A stretch of DNA of 64,000 nucleotides from an uncultured Lachnospiraceae bacterium (GCA_964421915.1 CAYQZB010000005.1:18761-82760); one strand, 5' to 3'. Shown: positions 18,256 to 28,412, numbered from the stretch's first letter. Program-made: numbers and translations. Notes: generated from the sequence alone by a model not told the origin.

Positions 18256-18506
18256 TTGGGTAGGAGGAACTAATTATGGATAATGGAGATATTAGGTCAA
18301 AATGTATGACAATTGAGAGAAGTCTTTATTTATATACTTCTTATTAAAATGATGATGTAATTAATTAGTTAAAAGGTTATGAGTAAAATATTATAATATT
18401 TTTGTATGATTTGATTGTATTTTAGAAATTGTATGATATATTTCATTTGTTTATTTTTTGATATTATTATATAGTAGTACCAAGAAGAGACAGAGGTTAA
18501 AAGGAT

Positions 18507-19049
18507 ATGATTATTTGGGTTGATGGTACATATGGTGTTGAAAAAACAGCAGTAGCAATGAGGTTAAAGGAAAAATTTTCTGATGATAACATTGAATTAT
18601 TGGAATCGGATTATTATTGTGATGAGATGGTGAAACCTCTGATTAAGAAAGCAAAAGCAAACAATTGTTTTCCGCAAATAGGTGATACAGTGCCTCAAAA
18701 TAATATGAATTTTATTAAAGAATTTAGAGAAACGATTAAAGAAAAATTCCAAAAAGCAAATAAAAAATTAGTTGTTGATATGGCTCTAACGATGAAAGAA
18801 TGTAAAGAAGAACTTTTTGACTATTTGAAAAATAATGGTATGAATATTGTGCATATTATTCTTACTGCTGATGAAGATACCATAAGAGAGAGAATTAAGA
18901 ATGATGAGAACAGAATGAAAGAAGCCGCTTTAGATAGGTTGACACAGAATATTGTATTTTTGAATAAAAATTTTCCTGATGCAATACGAATAAAAACCGA
19001 TAATTGTAATGTTGATGATGTAGTTGCAAAAATAATGGATGCAATTTAA
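18507..19049 (+). CDS. TmrB-like P-loop ATPase/kinase-fold protein with a variant Walker A
   Basis: 'MIIWVDGTYGVEKTAVA' parallels, from memory, the B. subtilis TmrB N-terminus 'MIIWINGAFGSGKTQTA'. The Walker A Gly before Lys is Glu here. The C-terminal 'IKTDNCNVDDVVAKI' is also TmrB-like. Confidence 0.55.
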   Translation: MIIWVDGTYGVEKTAVAMRLKEKFSDDNIELLESDYYCDEMVKPLIKKAKANNCFPQIGDTVPQNNMNFIKEFRETIKEKFQKANKKLVVDMALTMKECKEELFDYLKNNGMNIVHIILTADEDTIRERIKNDENRMKEAALDRLTQNIVFLNKNFPDAIRIKTDNCNVDDVVAKIMDAI

Positions 19050-19126: not shown

Positions 19127-21334
19127 ATGAAGATGGTAGAGACAGCAAAACAGGTCGTTGTGAATGGACAACAAAAAAATTTGATAGCAATAAGCGAGGA
19201 TTTATCTACGATTACTTACATAAATCAAAATATCTCAAGAAATTATAATAATCCTGAAGAAAAGATACAAGCAGAAGCCTTTTGTGAGCTTGTGTTAAAA
19301 TATAATTATCCCGTGGAACAGATAAAACAGTATGTAAAGGTTACTGTTGGTTCAGATGTAAAAGAAGCAGATATTATAGTATATAATGATAAAGAATGTA
19401 AAAAACCGCACATCATTGTTGAGTGTAAAAAAGCAGCAATTAGCGAACAAGAATTCAGACAGGCAGTACGACAGGCATTTTCATATGCCTTTGCTACCGC
19501 TGGAACAATAAAATATATATGGGTTACATCTGGAATAAAAAACGAATATTATGCATTTGACAAAGAAATAGATAGTAGGGAAAGTGTAACAGACATACCA
19601 CAATATAAGGTAAATAAATTAGCGAGCTACAAATTTGCAAAAAATGGGGGGACAACTGCTGATGGACAGAAATTGTTTCCGTTGGCAAAAGTCGAGGAAT
19701 CAGAACTTACAAATCGATTTAAGCAGGCACATCAGGCATTATGGGGCGGTGGAGAGTTAAATCCATCGGAAGCATTTGATGAATTAGATAAGTTGATTTT
19801 TTGCAAAATTTTCGATGAAAAGAAAAAACGTGGGAATGGACAGCCATATGATTTCCAGATTATCAAAGTAGAGCCTAAAAGTAAGGATAAGAGAGACATC
19901 GAAAAAGCAGATCAAGAAACAAGTGAAAATTTACTAAAAAGATTGATTTCGCTTTATGAAGAAGGCAAAAATATAGGCCAGCGGAAAAATGATACAGAGA
20001 TTTTTAGAGAAGGAATTAAATTAAATGCATCAAAGGCAAGAACTGTTGTCAGTTATCTTGAAGGAGTTGATTTATTACATACAGATCTTGACAGCAAGGG
20101 GCGTGCGTTTGAAACATTTATGGGTTCCTTTTTCAGAGGTGATTTTGGACAGTATTTTACACCTAGGAATATTGTCAGCTTTATTGTGGATAGTTTGCCA
20201 ATAGATGAAAAACATCGAGTATTGGATACATCATGTGGAAGTGGAGGCTTTTTGCTTCATGCATTGGATAAGGTTAGAAAAGCAGCAAGGAATTTTTATG
20301 ATGTGAAGGAGGGTGAACAGGAGTCTATTGAATGTCATAATCAATGGCATGATTTTGCAGAATATAATTTATATGGAATAGAAATAAATGAGCAAATTTC
20401 AAGAACGGCTAAGATGAATATGATTATTCACGATGATGGTCATACAAATGTTGTTGCATCGGATGGACTTATCGCTCCAGAGGATTTGCGAATAAAGACA
20501 AATAATGACGGCTTCAAGGAAAATTCATTTGATTATATTATTACAAATCCACCCTTTGGTTCTACGGTCAAACAGACAGAGAAGGCATATTTGCATCAGT
20601 ATAAATTGGCGACAAAAGAGGTTGACTGGTTAAATCCCAATAGTAAGGCATCCGATCGACCCAGCCAAAGTACAGAAGTTTTGTTTATAGAGCAGGCCGA
20701 AAAGTATCTGATAGATGGTGGCTATTTGGCTATTGTTATTCCGGATGGAGTGTTAACGAATACCAGCATGCAATATGTTAGAGATTATATCAGTGATACG
20801 TTTAGAATTGTCGCTGTTATTTCGATGCCTCAGACTGCTTTTTCTGCTAATGGTGCGGGTGTAAAAAGTTCTGTTATGTTTTTAAAAAAATATTCTTCTG
20901 CTGAGAAAAAGATGAGAATTGATTTGAGAAATAATACACAAAACAGATTGATTGCACATTCTGAAGACGGAAAGAAATTATTCCAATTACTAAAAGACAA
21001 AAAAGGTAGTCTTGATAATATAAATAAGCAGCTAAAACGTATGGAACACTCTGGCAATATTGATGTGACGGAGCAGTTAGTTAACAAAAAACAAGTTGTT
21101 ACGGAAGAGTTTGATGAACAGATAGAATTTACAAAAGAAAATCTTTCAGAGGCGTATTTGGAGCAATACAGGAATGAACTCATGGATTATCCTATTTTTA
21201 TGGCGATCGCAGAAGATATAGGATATGATGCCACTGGTAAGGAAACTGGTAAAAATGAATTGCCAGAAATTGCAAAGGAACTTTCTAAATTTATTCAAGC
21301 TATTGAGGAAGGTACAGACTATTTTTTTCAGTAA
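19127..21334 (+). CDS. Bifunctional nuclease-methyltransferase: HsdR-N-like PD-(D/E)xK domain plus gamma-class N6-adenine DNA methyltransferase (BcgI-A-like, type IIB/IIG)
   Basis: N-terminal 'EADIIVYND..PHIIVECKK' (D...ExK). MTase motif I 'VLDTSCGSGGFLLH'. Motif IV 'ITNPPFGS'. No separate HsdR gene nearby. Confidence 0.8.
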   Translation: MKMVETAKQVVVNGQQKNLIAISEDLSTITYINQNISRNYNNPEEKIQAEAFCELVLKYNYPVEQIKQYVKVTVGSDVKEADIIVYNDKECKKPHIIVECKKAAISEQEFRQAVRQAFSYAFATAGTIKYIWVTSGIKNEYYAFDKEIDSRESVTDIPQYKVNKLASYKFAKNGGTTADGQKLFPLAKVEESELTNRFKQAHQALWGGGELNPSEAFDELDKLIFCKIFDEKKKRGNGQPYDFQIIKVEPKSKDKRDIEKADQETSENLLKRLISLYEEGKNIGQRKNDTEIFREGIKLNASKARTVVSYLEGVDLLHTDLDSKGRAFETFMGSFFRGDFGQYFTPRNIVSFIVDSLPIDEKHRVLDTSCGSGGFLLHALDKVRKAARNFYDVKEGEQESIECHNQWHDFAEYNLYGIEINEQISRTAKMNMIIHDDGHTNVVASDGLIAPEDLRIKTNNDGFKENSFDYIITNPPFGSTVKQTEKAYLHQYKLATKEVDWLNPNSKASDRPSQSTEVLFIEQAEKYLIDGGYLAIVIPDGVLTNTSMQYVRDYISDTFRIVAVISMPQTAFSANGAGVKSSVMFLKKYSSAEKKMRIDLRNNTQNRLIAHSEDGKKLFQLLKDKKGSLDNINKQLKRMEHSGNIDVTEQLVNKKQVVTEEFDEQIEFTKENLSEAYLEQYRNELMDYPIFMAIAEDIGYDATGKETGKNELPEIAKELSKFIQAIEEGTDYFFQ

Positions 21335-21417: not shown

Positions 21418-22794
21418 ATGATTCTGTTAGATAAAAATATTGTACAAAAGTCTAAGTATCTTGTGGCTACGTTTAAGCAGAAGATTAAAATGCAGAGGGG
21501 GAGATTTGGGCATCGTCCAAGAAATGACTCTCGTTATTATAATGGTATATATCCATTTATTCAGACAGGAAATGTTGTAAAAGCAAGTGAAGGAAATGAA
21601 AAAATTGAATATACCCAAACTTTGAATGAGTTAGGGTTATCTACAAGTCGTCTATTTGATGAAAAAGTATTAGTTATCACAATAGCTGCCAATATTGGAT
21701 ATACTGCTATTCTTGATTATGCAGCTTGCTTTCCTGATAGCTTGGTTGCTTTAACCCCCAAGAGCAATGACTTTACTTTAGAATATTTAAACATATACGT
21801 AAGGTTGATACGGCAATATATTGAAAATCTTGCACCACAGGCAGCGCAAAAAAATATAAATTTAAAGCAATTAGGGAAATTGCCGATTATTATTCCTGAT
21901 AAAGATGTTCAACAAGAAATTGTATTTATCATGGACCGTGCATATTCTAAAAAAATTCAATTGGAAAGTGAAGCACATGCTTTATTGGAAAGTATTGATA
22001 CTTATTTATTACAGGAGCTGGGAATAGATTTACCTTCACAAGAAGAAAATACACTTGAAAGCAGAATGTTTTATGTTAGTTCAGATAAAACTTTAGGAAA
22101 TAGGCTTAATCCTAGAAAATATACTCAAAAATATCAGCATCTTTTTTCTGTTATTGAAAATACACCATTTCCCAAAAAGTATTTAAGAGATTTGATTGTC
22201 GATAGTGTCTCTGGAAATTGGGGCAAAGATGATTTAGTGGAAAATGAAAACTTAGTTTCTTCCTTAGCAATAAGAGCTACAGAATTTGACAATAAATACA
22301 ATCTTAATTTGGACAATAAGCGGATGAAATTTCGAAAGTATGATCCGACGATTTATGAAAAAATTAAGTTATCTCCAAATGATATATTGATCGAAAAGTC
22401 AGGAGGAAGTGATAATCAACCTGTTGGGCGAGTTGCATTTATCGAGAAAGAAATGGTTGAAACTCGATCGTTGGCATATAGTAATTTTATTCATAAAATA
22501 GTTATTAATGAAGCCGAGGCAGTGCCGCGTTATGTGTATGAATATTTAAGATTAATACATAACATCAAGATTACAGAAGTTATGCAGACTCAAACCAATG
22601 GAATAAGAAATTTAATAATGGGAGAATATTTTAATTTATCTATAATTCTACCTAAAAAAGACAAGCAATTGACAATAGCAAGGGAAGCATCAAGGAAACG
22701 AAGACAGGCATTAGAAATAGAAACGAAAGCTAGTCAAATTTTAGAAGCAGCAAGAATACAAGTGAAAAAGTTATTATTAGGAGAAAGTTTATGA
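21418..22794 (+). CDS. Restriction-modification specificity (S) subunit with two target-recognition domains; conserved N-terminal segment lies upstream without a start codon
   Basis: Two half-repeats, each introduced by '(V/M)F..x..(E/N)RL(D/N)P(Q/R)xY'. The first such segment (KVFLKTWGGIDERLDPQFY) is encoded at 21355-21411, upstream of the first ATG/GTG/TTG in that frame. Confidence 0.75.
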   Translation: MILLDKNIVQKSKYLVATFKQKIKMQRGRFGHRPRNDSRYYNGIYPFIQTGNVVKASEGNEKIEYTQTLNELGLSTSRLFDEKVLVITIAANIGYTAILDYAACFPDSLVALTPKSNDFTLEYLNIYVRLIRQYIENLAPQAAQKNINLKQLGKLPIIIPDKDVQQEIVFIMDRAYSKKIQLESEAHALLESIDTYLLQELGIDLPSQEENTLESRMFYVSSDKTLGNRLNPRKYTQKYQHLFSVIENTPFPKKYLRDLIVDSVSGNWGKDDLVENENLVSSLAIRATEFDNKYNLNLDNKRMKFRKYDPTIYEKIKLSPNDILIEKSGGSDNQPVGRVAFIEKEMVETRSLAYSNFIHKIVINEAEAVPRYVYEYLRLIHNIKITEVMQTQTNGIRNLIMGEYFNLSIILPKKDKQLTIAREASRKRRQALEIETKASQILEAARIQVKKLLLGESL

Positions 22795-24260
22795 GATTAA
22801 CAGGAATTATTGATTATACAATGGACAATTTTTTATGTATTCGTGGTTTTGCACCTATGTTACAATTGGCAAAAATTTCAAAGGCAGATGAAAATATTCA
22901 GAGAGATTTAATTGAAGACCATAGAGGTGATATGGAGGCATTTTTATCTGATGGAAAATTTACTTTTTTTCCAGAAGTTATTTTAGGGATTAATATGAAA
23001 GGCTCCGATAGCGATATCGATAAAATAAATCTCCTGCGTGAAGAAGTTCGTGCCGAAAGGAGTCTGAAGAAAATAGTAATCAATGACATTAAGTATACAA
23101 TAAAAAGGAGTGCAATAAAAAAAGAAAATAATGATTTATCCTATGATGTTACACAGACGGTTGTTATGGAGTTTGAAAAATCATCAATTATTGGAAAAGA
23201 ATTTCTAAGAATTGATGGGAATCATCGTTTGAGCGCCGTTAATGAGCAGTCCTCTTACACAAACAAAAGAATACCATATTGTTTGTTGCTATTTCGAGAT
23301 GATATTGAAACAGATAAGTTTTGCAGAGCACTTTTTTATAATATAAATGCAAAACAGATTTCGTTAAAAATGGAACATAATTTAAAAGTTATTATTGAGA
23401 GTGAACAGGCTTTCGATGACGAAACATTAAAAAAATCATTTGGTATCAATTATTATTTAGCTAGAAAGATAATAAAAACAGCTGATTTTAATAACTTTCC
23501 TTTTATTAAAACGCTTGTGTTTGAGAATATGTATACATATTTTGTTGATGTTCTTGCGCTTTTGTTAGAAAAAGATTTGATTAAGGAAAGCGATGAGAGC
23601 ATTAGTATAATTTCTGAGGTTCTTATAGATATAAATAAAGCATTGAAGTATGCTGAAACAGTAGGTGTACCAAATTGTTTGGCTCTTATCGGAGCATTTA
23701 CTTATTATACTTTAATAGATAAATATAAAGCGGACAAGTTTTTAAAGTGGGTACAGCAAAACAGACTTATGAACATTCCAGAGTTACATATTTATGATGT
23801 GATTGATATTTATGATAAAATATATGATAGTACACCTAAGAAAATTTTTATGTCAATGTGGTTTAATAAAAAGACAGAGGATACTTATAAAGAGGTTAAT
23901 GATGTTAAAAAAATTGTAAAAGAGAAATATAATGTGGAACTTGAGATTATTAAAGTGGATGAGCATAAGGACGGCTATTCTGATGTCATAAGTAAAAGAA
24001 TTATTGAAGGGATTGATAATTGCGATTTACTCATTGCGGATTTATCATATGGGAATAAAAATGTGCATCATGAGATAGGTTATGCGCAGGGGAAAGGAAA
24101 GAAAGTGCTGCTATTATATCAAATTCGTGATGACGCAAATCCATCTGATGAAATTGGATCAAATCTTTCAATGCATGATCAATTACGGTTTGATACATAT
24201 GGAAAATTAAGAGATGGTTTGCTTGAAAAAATTAAAGATTGTTTTTCGTTAGAAAAATAG
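22791..24260 (+). CDS. DGQHR/DndB-like (ParB-Srx fold) domain fused to a nucleoside 2-deoxyribosyltransferase/SLOG-like C-terminal domain
   Basis: N-terminal 'QRDLIEDHRGDMEAFL..FFPEVILGI' and 'LRIDGNHRLSAV...FCRALFYNINAKQ'. C-terminal 'KIFMSMWF...DLLIADLSYGNKNVHHEIGYAQGKGKKVLLLY'. The ATGA start overlaps the S-gene stop. Confidence 0.65.
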   Translation: MRLTGIIDYTMDNFLCIRGFAPMLQLAKISKADENIQRDLIEDHRGDMEAFLSDGKFTFFPEVILGINMKGSDSDIDKINLLREEVRAERSLKKIVINDIKYTIKRSAIKKENNDLSYDVTQTVVMEFEKSSIIGKEFLRIDGNHRLSAVNEQSSYTNKRIPYCLLLFRDDIETDKFCRALFYNINAKQISLKMEHNLKVIIESEQAFDDETLKKSFGINYYLARKIIKTADFNNFPFIKTLVFENMYTYFVDVLALLLEKDLIKESDESISIISEVLIDINKALKYAETVGVPNCLALIGAFTYYTLIDKYKADKFLKWVQQNRLMNIPELHIYDVIDIYDKIYDSTPKKIFMSMWFNKKTEDTYKEVNDVKKIVKEKYNVELEIIKVDEHKDGYSDVISKRIIEGIDNCDLLIADLSYGNKNVHHEIGYAQGKGKKVLLLYQIRDDANPSDEIGSNLSMHDQLRFDTYGKLRDGLLEKIKDCFSLEK

Positions 24261-24551: not shown

Positions 24552-25139
24552 TTGGATAATTGGAATAATTTATTAGATGAGGATATTTTAAAAGCCAATA
24601 TAAATTTTGCAGCATTATTTGTACTGAATTTTGAGTGTTTAAAAGATTATATTGTTACACAACCCAAAACATTTTATAGTGATGTCGAAATTAAGGACGG
24701 AGAACTGTACTGTGAAGAAACAGAAGAATATAAAAAAGAAGTGCGGTCATTGGAGAAAAATATAGAGAATGCTTCGTTGCGCTGGTTTGTTAATGCAGAG
24801 GCTATTACAGAGGAAGAGTATAACTTATACCAAGAATTGCGGAGAAAAAGGAACGATATCACGCATGAACTTTTAAAAAATTTAAATAATGGTTTTAATC
24901 AAGCAGATGCAAAGTTGTATGTAAAGTTACTAGAATTATATCAAAAAATAGACAAATGGTGGATAAATGAAATTGAAATTCCTATTTCAGGTGAGTTACT
25001 GCCGGATGAATATGATCCGGAACAGGTTTTTGGCGGACAGGCAATGATATTATCAATAATTAACGATATTATTTTTGATAATAATAAAGAGAGATATAGA
25101 AGCTTATTAGATGAATTAAAGAAAATGGGAATAGCGTGA
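24552..25139 (+). CDS. Hypothetical protein (195 aa, acidic, helical)
   Basis: ORF with AGGAGG RBS and TTG start. No motif recognised. Confidence 0.5.
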   Translation: MDNWNNLLDEDILKANINFAALFVLNFECLKDYIVTQPKTFYSDVEIKDGELYCEETEEYKKEVRSLEKNIENASLRWFVNAEAITEEEYNLYQELRRKRNDITHELLKNLNNGFNQADAKLYVKLLELYQKIDKWWINEIEIPISGELLPDEYDPEQVFGGQAMILSIINDIIFDNNKERYRSLLDELKKMGIA

Positions 25140-27317: not shown

Positions 27318-27557
27318 AGCAATCAAAAAGTTAAGAATTTTAAACGTATCGAATTCGATACGTTTAAAATGACTGTAACCGTGTGTAATTCAAGTCGGTT
27401 ATAATCAGGAGATTTTTTAAAACAATTTGTGGACGAAATTTTCGTCCGCAAATTGAGATGTTTGACTATGCTAATTGCCTCGAATTGGAGGCAGTTAAAA
27501 AATTTGTAGATGTTTGATCATTTTCGTGATGTCACGAAAATGATAGGGAGGATTGGT

Positions 27558-28412
27558 ATGGATAAAAAGATAATTACGCAATTAAAGAATCTATTTGATG
27601 GTATTATGCATGATGAAGATGGGGTGCAATATTGGCTTGCAAGAGAACTTATGGTGCCGCTCGGATATGAGAGGTGGGAAAATTTTAATAATGCTGTAAA
27701 TCGTGCCATGACAGCATGCAGTGAAAGCGGAATTGATTCTACGGATCATTTTCGTGAGATCACGAAATTGACCACTGTAGGAAAAGGAGCCCAAAGAGAA
27801 TTGCTTGATTATATGCTGACCCGATATGCATGCTATCTTATTGCGGAAAACGGTGATCCTCGCAAGGAACAGATTGCTTTTGCACAAAGTTATTTTGCAA
27901 TTCAAACTAGAAAGATGGAACTTATTGAGGAAAGAATATCTTATATTGAGAGGACAGAAGCTAGAGGAAGGCTTAGGGAGTCAGAAAAAAGATTATCACA
28001 GAATATCTATGAGCGTGGGGTTGATGATGCTGGGTTTGGGCGAATAAGATCTAAGGGCGATAAAGCACTGTTTGGAGGTCGTTCCACTAAGGAGATGAAA
28101 GATTGTCTTGGTGTGAAGGAGAACCGTCCTTTGGCAGATTTCCTTCCGACATTAACTATTGCAGCCAAAAATCTTGCTACAGAGATGACAAATTACAATG
28201 TTGAAGAGAAAGACCTTCAAGGAGAATCTGCGATTACAGTCGAGCATATCGAGAATAATACATCAGTTAGAAAAATGCTCGGCGAAAGAGGGATCAAGCC
28301 TGAGAATCTTCCGCGTTCAGAAGACATCAAAAAACTAGAGCGCAAGGTAAAGCGGGAGAATAAAAAACTTGCAGAAGAGTCTGGAAAGCTTAAACGAAAT
28401 TCAAATAAGTAG
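27558..28412 (+). CDS. dinD: DNA damage-inducible protein D (DinD) family
   Basis: 'YWLARELMVPLGYERWENF', 'LTRYACYLIAENGDPRKEQIAFAQSYFAIQTR'. GGGAGG RBS before the ATG at 27558. Confidence 0.8.
   Translation: MDKKIITQLKNLFDGIMHDEDGVQYWLARELMVPLGYERWENFNNAVNRAMTACSESGIDSTDHFREITKLTTVGKGAQRELLDYMLTRYACYLIAENGDPRKEQIAFAQSYFAIQTRKMELIEERISYIERTEARGRLRESEKRLSQNIYERGVDDAGFGRIRSKGDKALFGGRSTKEMKDCLGVKENRPLADFLPTLTIAAKNLATEMTNYNVEEKDLQGESAITVEHIENNTSVRKMLGERGIKPENLPRSEDIKKLERKVKRENKKLAEESGKLKRNSNK

Follow-up and report, generated by a model that had tools for sequence, protein, structure and literature searches.

A DGQHR/DndB-like and NDT-like fusion protein encoded at the end of a BcgI-like restriction-modification operon: a candidate RM-coupled N-glycosidase effector

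What is the function of a 489-codon open reading frame (ORF) that overlaps the specificity gene of a restriction-modification (RM) locus, and does it belong to the RM system beside it? The ORF lies in a stretch of 64,000 nucleotides from an uncultured Lachnospiraceae bacterium (GCA_964421915.1, CAYQZB010000005.1:18761-82760), referred to here as the window. Its 489-residue product (ORF 22791-24260) is termed T and the 735-residue product of the ORF at 19127-21334 is termed MT. A first-pass annotation, made from the sequence, had read T as a DGQHR (DndB-like) domain fused to a nucleoside 2-deoxyribosyltransferase (NDT)-like domain and attached to a BcgI-like RM system. The analysis identifies T as a real, conserved gene without an assigned name, and moderately favours its being an accessory effector coupled to RM systems that have a separate specificity (S) subunit. 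The features concerned are as follows.

22791..24260, + strand: gene T, 489 codons plus stop, encoding a DGQHR/DndB-like, helical and NDT-like fusion protein
22779..22794, + strand: translational-coupling junction, AGGAG followed by the ATGA that joins the S stop and the T start
19127..21334, + strand: MT, BcgI-like bifunctional subunit of 735 residues, a PD-(D/E)xK nuclease (HSDR_N_2) fused to a gamma-class N6-adenine methyltransferase
21418..22794, + strand: S, type I-like specificity subunit of 458 residues (Methylase_S)

The ATG of T (22791-22793) overlaps the TGA of the S gene (22792-22794) to give ATGA, as the first-pass annotation had described, and AGGAG is positioned at 22779-22783, 7 nt 5' of the ATG. 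The junction identifies T as an operon member, co-transcribed with the RM genes and translationally coupled to them. The GC content of the T ORF (29.7%) would make stop codons frequent, so that T is no chance frame; by our own estimate the probability of a random open frame of 489 codons is about 1e-18. All the motifs previously quoted for T were located in the protein: QRDL (residues 37-40), FFPEVILGI (59-67), LRIDGNHRLSAV (139-150), FYNINAKQ (182-189), DLLIADLS (412-419) and NVHHEIGYAQGKGKKVLLL (424-442). A scan of 17.9-25.3 kb for promoters and terminators gave counts that did not exceed those of shuffled sequence and is therefore silent on the operon boundaries.

Domain architecture and conservation of T

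T comprises three consecutive domains.

22791..23375, + strand: N-terminal ParB-superfamily DGQHR (DndB/DpdB-like) domain, residues 1-195
23376..23825, + strand: all-helical middle domain, residues 196-345, from the secondary structure of the AlphaFold2 (AF2) model
23826..24257, + strand: C-terminal NDT/DNPH1/MilB-like flavodoxin-fold N-glycosidase domain, residues 346-489

A word-indexed search recovered 920 relatives of T, the best 120 of which are nearly all 486-495 residues long, annotated as hypothetical and mostly from Lachnospiraceae and other gut Clostridia. A profile built from 32 relatives and scored against 1.84 billion cluster representatives matched 236 clusters (50% identity) at E<=1e-30, most of them full-length proteins of 480-550 residues, and the identity of full-length homologues (about 489 residues) to T ranges from 85% down to 23%. 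Conservation was read from an alignment of 67 diverse relatives, also reaching down to 23% identity, in which residues R18, S30, Q37, R38, E62, D142, N144, H145, R146, F182, N186, W320, F353, N424, V425 and E428 (T numbering) are invariant. With a full-length family and invariant columns of this kind, the fusion is an old, selected architecture and no local accident.

The C-terminal domain is dominated by similarity to N-glycosidases of the NDT group. When the T family profile was scored against all PDB sequences only NDT, DNPH1/Rcl and BcmB chains were returned (the same search with the broader alignment A3 being less informative than with A1), and E428 aligns with the catalytic Glu of FEVG (2a0k), IEIG (BcmB) and YELG (Rcl), the identity of the domain to NDT/DNPH1/MilB/BcmB enzymes being 12-24%. 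Similarly, Foldseek searches of the PDB matched BcmB, MilB, NDT and DNPH1 at E-values of 3.9e-5 to 1e-3 (probability 1.0, target TM-score 0.5-0.75), and the 21 hits at E<=0.001 all belong to this group with the exception of one "conserved protein" entry. The Pfam family PF05014 (Nuc_deoxyrib_tr) matches T at E=1.5e-5 over residues 388-448, with 25.6 bits against a gathering score of 28.8, and matches 13 of the 67 relatives at E<=0.01. F353, N424, V425 and E428 are the invariant residues of the domain and D417 is nearly invariant; the loop from D417 to E428 spans 11 residues, a length that by our reading of the alignments resembles that of DNPH1. The domain is thus shown, by profile and fold comparison, to have an NDT-family N-glycosidase fold in which the position of the nucleophilic Glu and the neighbouring loop are invariant, and N-glycosidase activity is predicted. 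No match to DUF1524 or HNH was found in T.

The N-terminal domain is recognized mainly through the family. The TIGR03187 DGQHR model matches T over residues 31-190 at E=7.8e-4, with 19.3 bits against a curated cutoff of 58.85, and by the curated rule T is a divergent relative and not a member. The same model matches 63 of the 67 relatives at E<=0.01 (best 4.5e-16). The DGQHR reading of the first-pass annotation therefore holds for the family, with the window protein by itself below threshold, and profile similarity to both DGQHR/ParB and NDT domains was found across the relatives. Further matches among the 67 include Pfam DndB (16, best 5e-9), DGQHR_dnd_1 (14), weak matches to DpdB models (17, best 2.3e-7), weak matches to GmrSD_N (4) and weak matches to the DndB model TIGR03233 (2); no DpdB model matched T of the window itself, and a Pfam scan of its N-terminus returned no match. 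The invariant residues of the domain are Q37-R38, E62, the D142, N144, H145 and R146 of the DGNHR box, and N186, while G143 is kept in at least 90% of the relatives and a beta-rich insert occupies approximately residues 88-128. The box reads DGNHR in place of DGQHR, with Asn at the Gln position throughout the 67 relatives, the QR and DGxHR signature residues being otherwise invariant. By alignment, these boxes are shown to correspond to the ParB-superfamily nucleotide pocket, the residues of which appear intact.

In the middle domain W320 is the sole invariant residue and F317 is nearly so, and residues 196-345 have no Pfam or PDB match. A HEPN-like middle domain, as reported for DndB, was considered and rejected, as the 67 relatives have no conserved Rx4-6H motif.

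A few distant relatives depart from this architecture. In P0267 (627 residues) an N-terminal extension of about 230 residues replaces the first part of the DGQHR domain and carries an Rx4H motif, RNPKAH, that is HEPN-like as read by eye. P0217 and P0227 have long, probably coiled-coil, inserts within the middle domain.

Occurrence of T in restriction-modification operons

The gene content upstream of T is that of a BcgI-like (type IIB) system, with nuclease and methylase in one ORF and a separate S gene containing two Methylase_S stretches. MT matches Pfam HSDR_N_2 (1.6e-16) and N6_Mtase (2.2e-36) and the PADLOC model MTase_I PDLC03030 (7.9e-181), and S matches Pfam Methylase_S (8.5e-20 over the two stretches) and PADLOC Specificity_I (1.3e-72). 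The PD-(D/E)xK triad of MT (D82...E99-x-K101) is conserved at 95% or more in 67 MT homologues from T-linked loci. The possibility that T replaces a missing nuclease was thus rejected: the nuclease motif of MT is conserved and T does not stand in for a lost activity.

A pattern scan of 185,579 species-representative genomes gave 213 confirmed T relatives, and the best 80 loci were examined. They derive from more than ten phyla, including Bacillota, Verrucomicrobiota, Alpha-, Beta- and Gammaproteobacteria, Bacteroidota, Planctomycetota, Deinococcota, Thermotogota, Melainabacteria, Desulfobacterota, Nitrospinota, Acidobacteriota and Lentisphaerota, among others. The context of T in these loci is as follows.

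66/80 loci: same-strand MT homologue beside T
5/80 loci: hsdM-hsdS-hsdR, with an EcoR124-type HsdR, ending directly 5' of T
1/80 loci: S gene, with a transposase in the place of MT (L080)
8/80 loci: less than 4.5 kb of upstream sequence, uninformative

An RM operon therefore adjoins T in 71 of the 72 informative loci, 66 of them BcgI-like, which bears out the attachment to a BcgI-like system that the first-pass annotation had suggested. The partner is not BcgI-like alone, five loci being classical type I hsdMSR operons. In the 66 MT loci the spacing between MT and T is usually about 1.4 kb, the length of one S gene. Some loci deviate from this order: in L087 and L092 T lies between MT and S (MT-T-S), in L035 MT and S are fused ahead of T, and MT-S-X-T is found as well. 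A 4-nt overlap between T and the gene before it is present in 40 of the 80 loci. Three homologues looked up independently (72%, 47% and 44% identity) likewise stand in the order MT-S-T among otherwise unrelated neighbours, and none of the other flanking ORFs of the window recurs next to T in other loci. No examined locus contained T without an RM or S gene. Among the best 80 of 213 relatives T is thus found almost only inside RM operons of the S-subunit type, mostly as the last gene, so that the neighbourhood association anticipated for its homologues proved near-exclusive.

The converse was examined by searching metagenomes with the MT alignment. The best 80 of at least 592 loci were taken (L101-L180), 56 of which have enough downstream sequence. 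T is present in 32 of these, 20 in the order MT-S-T and 12 in the order MT-T-S, and absent from 24 (about 43%). Loci with and without T alternate even between closely related MT genes: L101 (84% MT identity) has T and L104 (81%) does not, and likewise L105 (70%) has T and L111 (69%) does not. In loci without T the slot after S holds ApeA-like HEPN, KAP NTPase, T5orf172, ORF6N or DUF3375 (JetA-like) genes, or an extra hsdM or hsdS, while some T loci carry an additional Ymh-HEPN, HNH, DUF5655 or LA2681-HEPN gene beside T. Since the RM clade is often without T, T counts among the optional additions to these operons, not among their core subunits. The dependence is therefore asymmetric: the RM operon does without T, and T is essentially never found without an S-type RM system.

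A phage origin of T was considered and rejected, with no match in GenBank phages and four loci in IMG/VR; a tblastn search of phages with the C-terminal domain alone returned only non-significant Staphylococcus phage matches. A plasmid origin was similarly rejected, as T is rare on plasmids (three weak matches), the best match being a decayed chimera. This ORF, on the Leisingera thetidis plasmid NZ_CP109788.1 (L096, 6864-9107), is annotated as "N-6 DNA methylase" and joins MT residues 133-507 in frame to T residues 138-487; its composition identifies it as the remains of an MT-S-T operon after a deletion, which gene calling still treats as a single gene.

In one lineage (L008, L009 and L011) MT is preceded by overlapping genes for a 264-residue radical SAM protein, a 440-residue protein (400 residues in L011) and an Mrr-family nuclease, and T is followed by a 903-residue AAA/UvrD-type helicase; these loci may represent a larger composite island.

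Proposed mechanism and alternative explanations

The near-exclusive place of T in RM operons across many phyla makes it probably a dedicated accessory effector, and the explanation that we hold with moderate confidence is that of an RM-coupled accessory N-glycosidase effector of S-subunit-type RM systems. The N-terminal domains of the ParB superfamily bind nucleoside triphosphates (NTPs) and dimerise on binding, SspE and GmrSD couple a ParB-like domain to a nuclease, and NDT and DNPH1 enzymes function only as dimers, whose subunits share the active sites. The N-terminal domain of T would bind NTP and DNA and act as a switch, like ParB, DndB, DpdB, SspE and GmrSD, and its NTP-driven dimerisation would bring two NDT domains into proximity. 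As the active sites of NDT and DNPH1 are built across the dimer, this pairing would turn on hydrolysis of N-glycosidic bonds. The switch would be set by the state of the methylase-specificity (M/S) complex on DNA, through either its engagement with unmodified DNA or its inactivation by a phage inhibitor. The output would be a second line of defence, through depletion of nucleotides or NAD+, as with retron Ec86, or through excision of DNA bases. The label of backup or modification-sensing effector, given to T in the first-pass annotation, may then be apt. Candidate substrates are free nucleotides, NAD+ and DNA bases; the DNPH1-like loop length points to nucleotides and the ParB-like module argues for DNA.

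The individual elements of this scheme have counterparts in the literature. A DndB-like protein binds ATP and GTP (bioRxiv 10.1101/2025.10.10.680097), and DpdB is presented as a ParB-like ATPase that drives base insertion by DpdA, according to the passages of PMC10164549 relayed in PMC12839542. NDT domains have been predicted to be Abi (abortive infection)-type toxins or effectors (PMC3710099), and retron Ec86 has an NDT-like effector, a toxin that stays latent until it is triggered and then depletes adenine derivatives (bioRxiv 10.1101/2023.08.16.553469).

Several points weigh against this explanation. The contact of T with MT or S, its dimerisation, its trigger and its substrate are all steps that we infer. 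The matches of the window protein to PF05014 and TIGR03187 both lie below the curated cutoffs. The AF2 model of full-length T has a pLDDT of 80 and a pTM of 0.57, a value at which the inter-domain geometry is not predicted. Structural comparison of the two halves, as the first-pass annotation had advised, related the C-terminal half to the NDT group, and the model of residues 1-345 (pLDDT 80) had no PDB match below E=0.28 and only weak, low-TM matches in BFVD, although the names among the latter are enriched for GmrSD_N (the GmrSD N-terminal domain), DndB (DNA-sulfur-modification-associated) and ParB-like. Hence the assignment of a ParB fold rests on sequence profiles and not on structure. The frequencies come from samples of the best 80 loci and may not hold for the whole family. 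Finally, the strong match of most relatives to a PADLOC model labelled as TIR means that the chemistry could be that of an NADase.

The leading alternative, itself unlikely, is that T is a restriction glycosylase or base exchanger acting on DNA, in which the ParB-like ATPase loads an NDT transglycosylase on duplex DNA and bases are excised or swapped at or near the M/S sites. In this role T would parallel the DpdB-DpdA pair in a single chain and add another "R" or "M" activity to the system. The DpdB matches among the relatives and the embedding of T between MT and S in some operons are in keeping with such a role, as is the transglycosylation chemistry of NDT enzymes, which proceeds through a Glu-deoxyribosyl intermediate and would use the invariant E428; moreover, Anantharaman et al. 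proposed that NDT domains of conflict systems attack DNA bases (PMC3710099). However, no base-biosynthesis genes accompany T in the loci examined, the Foldseek hits include no DNA-glycosylase structure, the loop from D417 to E428 has a length like that of DNPH1, which acts on free nucleotides, and the RM system carries a conserved nuclease itself and, in 24 of the 56 loci, forms a working unit from which T is missing. It is decidedly unlikely, in the more specific form of this idea, that T is an NTP-gated ParB-type clamp delivering the NDT transglycosylase to DNA, for restriction or self-marking by base excision or exchange at sites set by M/S. Such a T would define a new class among RM components: it would be the analogue, in one protein, of the DpdA-DpdB pair and a restriction glycosylase of a new kind.

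A regulatory role is improbable. T would be a DndB-like, ATP-dependent DNA binder that adjusts how strongly the RM operon is expressed or how active its products are, and its NDT-like domain would be a SLOG-like pocket for sensing nucleotides; DndB is reported as an ATP-modulated repressor of the dnd operon, according to passages in PMC4507180 that are discussed in PMC10853773, and T combines a DndB-type domain with a position in the operon of its presumed target. In contrast, conservation in the C-terminal domain goes beyond a binding pocket, the invariant N424, V425 and E428 and the nearly invariant D417 lying at or next to the catalytic position. T also closes the operon on its 3' side, is not required by the RM clade and occupies a slot otherwise held by toxin-type genes such as ApeA-HEPN and KAP, and no helix-turn-helix or other sequence-specific DNA-binding domain was detected in it with Pfam and NCBIfam profiles.

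The probability of a TIR-like NADase variant of the effector model, in which the cell is killed or arrested by depletion of NAD+, is equally low. The PADLOC model "Effector TIR" (PDLC00733) matches 59 of the 67 relatives (best 5.4e-9), more than the 13 matched by PF05014. The TIR and NDT folds, both flavodoxin-like, are related and place their active-site Glu similarly, and retron-Eco1 has an NDT-like effector that reportedly hydrolyses NAD+. However, no Pfam TIR family matched any of the 67 relatives at E<=0.01, there is no TIR structure among the top 50 Foldseek PDB hits of T, and the PDB profile search returned the NDT/DNPH1/BcmB family only; the C-terminal domain is for this reason treated as an N-glycosidase of the NDT branch.

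That T is an independent single-gene defence system, lying beside RM genes in islands with no functional coupling, is very improbable: related RM operons do host many unrelated stand-alone defence genes in the T slot and T of the window lies inside a low-GC island, but such island genes do not keep one type of neighbour so consistently, whereas T has a same-strand RM operon directly beside it in 71 of 72 informative loci from more than ten phyla, shares 40 junctions with a 4-nt overlap, lies between MT and S in some loci and is found in no examined locus that has neither an RM nor an S gene.

The RM-coupled effector thus remains the favoured explanation. With RM linkage near-complete across more than ten phyla, a defined functional dependence, amenable to testing, is indicated between RM complexes and an enzyme that cleaves nucleotides or bases. 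If the explanation is correct, T would represent a new accessory layer of type I and type IIB restriction, a function would be assigned to a widespread family now annotated as hypothetical, and T would provide a simple system for how ParB-type NTP switches control an attached enzyme.

Setting in the window and comparison with known systems

The RM genes and T lie in a low-GC island at about 18.5-26 kb of the window (28-35% GC against 40-44% in the flanks), which also covers an AAA_33 ORF and three small ORFs and is consistent with horizontal acquisition. The module is located downstream of housekeeping genes encoding an HtrA-like protease, a YhaM-like HD protein and an RlmCD-like methylase, the latter two being syntenic in the closest genome, a Butyrivibrio metagenome-assembled genome with a T of 85% identity.

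18507..19049, + strand: AAA_33/kinase-like P-loop ORF of 180 residues, just 5' of MT and inside the low-GC island

The AAA_33 ORF occurs neither in the syntenic Butyrivibrio locus (L016) nor in any other T locus and is therefore outside the conserved module. A 195-residue ORF (24552-25139, + strand), 292 nt 3' of T, contains the Rx4H motif RNDITH and has weak HEPN matches (DUF4145, E=0.019; PADLOC Csx1 and CARF-HEPN, E=0.0016-0.0057). The ORF, which has a homologue in no other fetched locus, may encode an accessory HEPN RNase comparable to those of the Ymh, LA2681 and ApeA HEPN genes in related RM operons. A 28-nt imperfect inverted repeat (18444-18471 and 24931-24958, 89% complementary) encloses MT, S and T together with the AAA_33 ORF on one side and the 5' portion of this downstream ORF on the other. 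The repeat is unlikely by chance on a rough estimate, yet it is AT-rich and of low complexity, and it might mark the ends of a cassette. Further downstream a 300-residue Bro-N protein is encoded (27510-28412, + strand), with a close homologue (E=1e-89) at 8152-9006 of L141, an unrelated metagenome RM locus, where it lies between a truncated MT gene and the S gene. From this placement the gene is suggested to be mobile, either targeting such operons or moving along with them.

Known systems were considered in turn. Membership of T in DndB was rejected, as there are no dnd genes in the window or in the related loci examined and the score is below the equivalog cutoff, and membership in DpdB was rejected likewise, with no TGT-like gene nearby and scores below the equivalog cutoff. 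For MADS, MAD2 and MAD5 scored 302 and 67.6 bits against cutoffs of 720 and 400, the other mad genes are absent from the locus, and no mad model matched T or its relatives. With partner genes missing and scores below the cutoffs, T is thus not a DndB, DpdB or MADS component. No named system in PADLOC 2.0, Pfam or NCBIfam matches T, and no description of the DGQHR-NDT fusion or of its RM linkage was found in the searchable literature, in agreement with the first-pass annotation, which had not recognised the architecture as a named defence system. DUF262/DGQHR genes within type I loci had been noted by earlier comparative work (PMC3632139).

The enzymes NDT, DNPH1, MilB and BcmB are the best structural and profile matches of the C-terminal domain, with the catalytic Glu aligned. 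In contrast to T, they are stand-alone proteins of 120-160 residues that function in metabolism or antibiotic biosynthesis. Retron Ec86 (Retron-Eco1, type II) also has an NDT-fold toxic output that is dimeric, has a conserved active-site Glu and is held inactive in a complex (bioRxiv 10.1101/2023.08.16.553469). There, an NDT-like domain with a winged helix-turn-helix is held by reverse transcriptase and its multicopy single-stranded DNA (RT-msDNA), whereas T joins its NDT-like domain to a ParB-like switch within RM operons; the two are likened by fold and role and not by a direct sequence match. DndB and DpdB share the DGQHR domain family with T and are, like T, operon partners of DNA-modification machinery. 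T differs in lacking nearby dnd or dpd genes, in the motif DGNHR instead of DGQHR, in family scores below the equivalog cutoffs and in its additional C-terminal domain of catalytic type, which DndB and DpdB do not have.

The closest parallels are with two other groups. GmrSD, BrxU and SspE similarly combine an N-terminal NTP-binding domain of the ParB superfamily (QR, DGxxR) with a C-terminal enzymatic effector and occur with DNA-modification-based defence (BREX, Ssp), as T does with RM; the GmrSD_N profile touches four T relatives and its name recurs among the BFVD fold matches. Their effector is, however, a DUF1524 HNH nuclease where that of T is an NDT-like N-glycosidase, their N-terminal domain is DUF262 where that of T falls in the DGQHR/DndB branch, and the methylation systems to which T is linked are type I-like or BcgI-like. 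PrrC and RloC, like T, are optional accessory effector genes inside RM operons of the S-subunit type; they occur in type Ic RM loci, and the five hsdMSR-T loci have an EcoR124-type HsdR. In contrast, they couple an ABC-type ATPase to an anticodon nuclease, where T would couple a ParB-like to an NDT-like domain under a presumed control by the RM system. By analogy, T would work most like GmrSD/BrxU/SspE and be arranged like PrrC/RloC, while standing outside both groups because its effector domain differs. Fusions of ParB-like domains to effectors and genes embedded in RM operons are thus known themes; in T the effector is of the NDT/DNPH1 N-glycosidase family and the gene is tied to RM operons.

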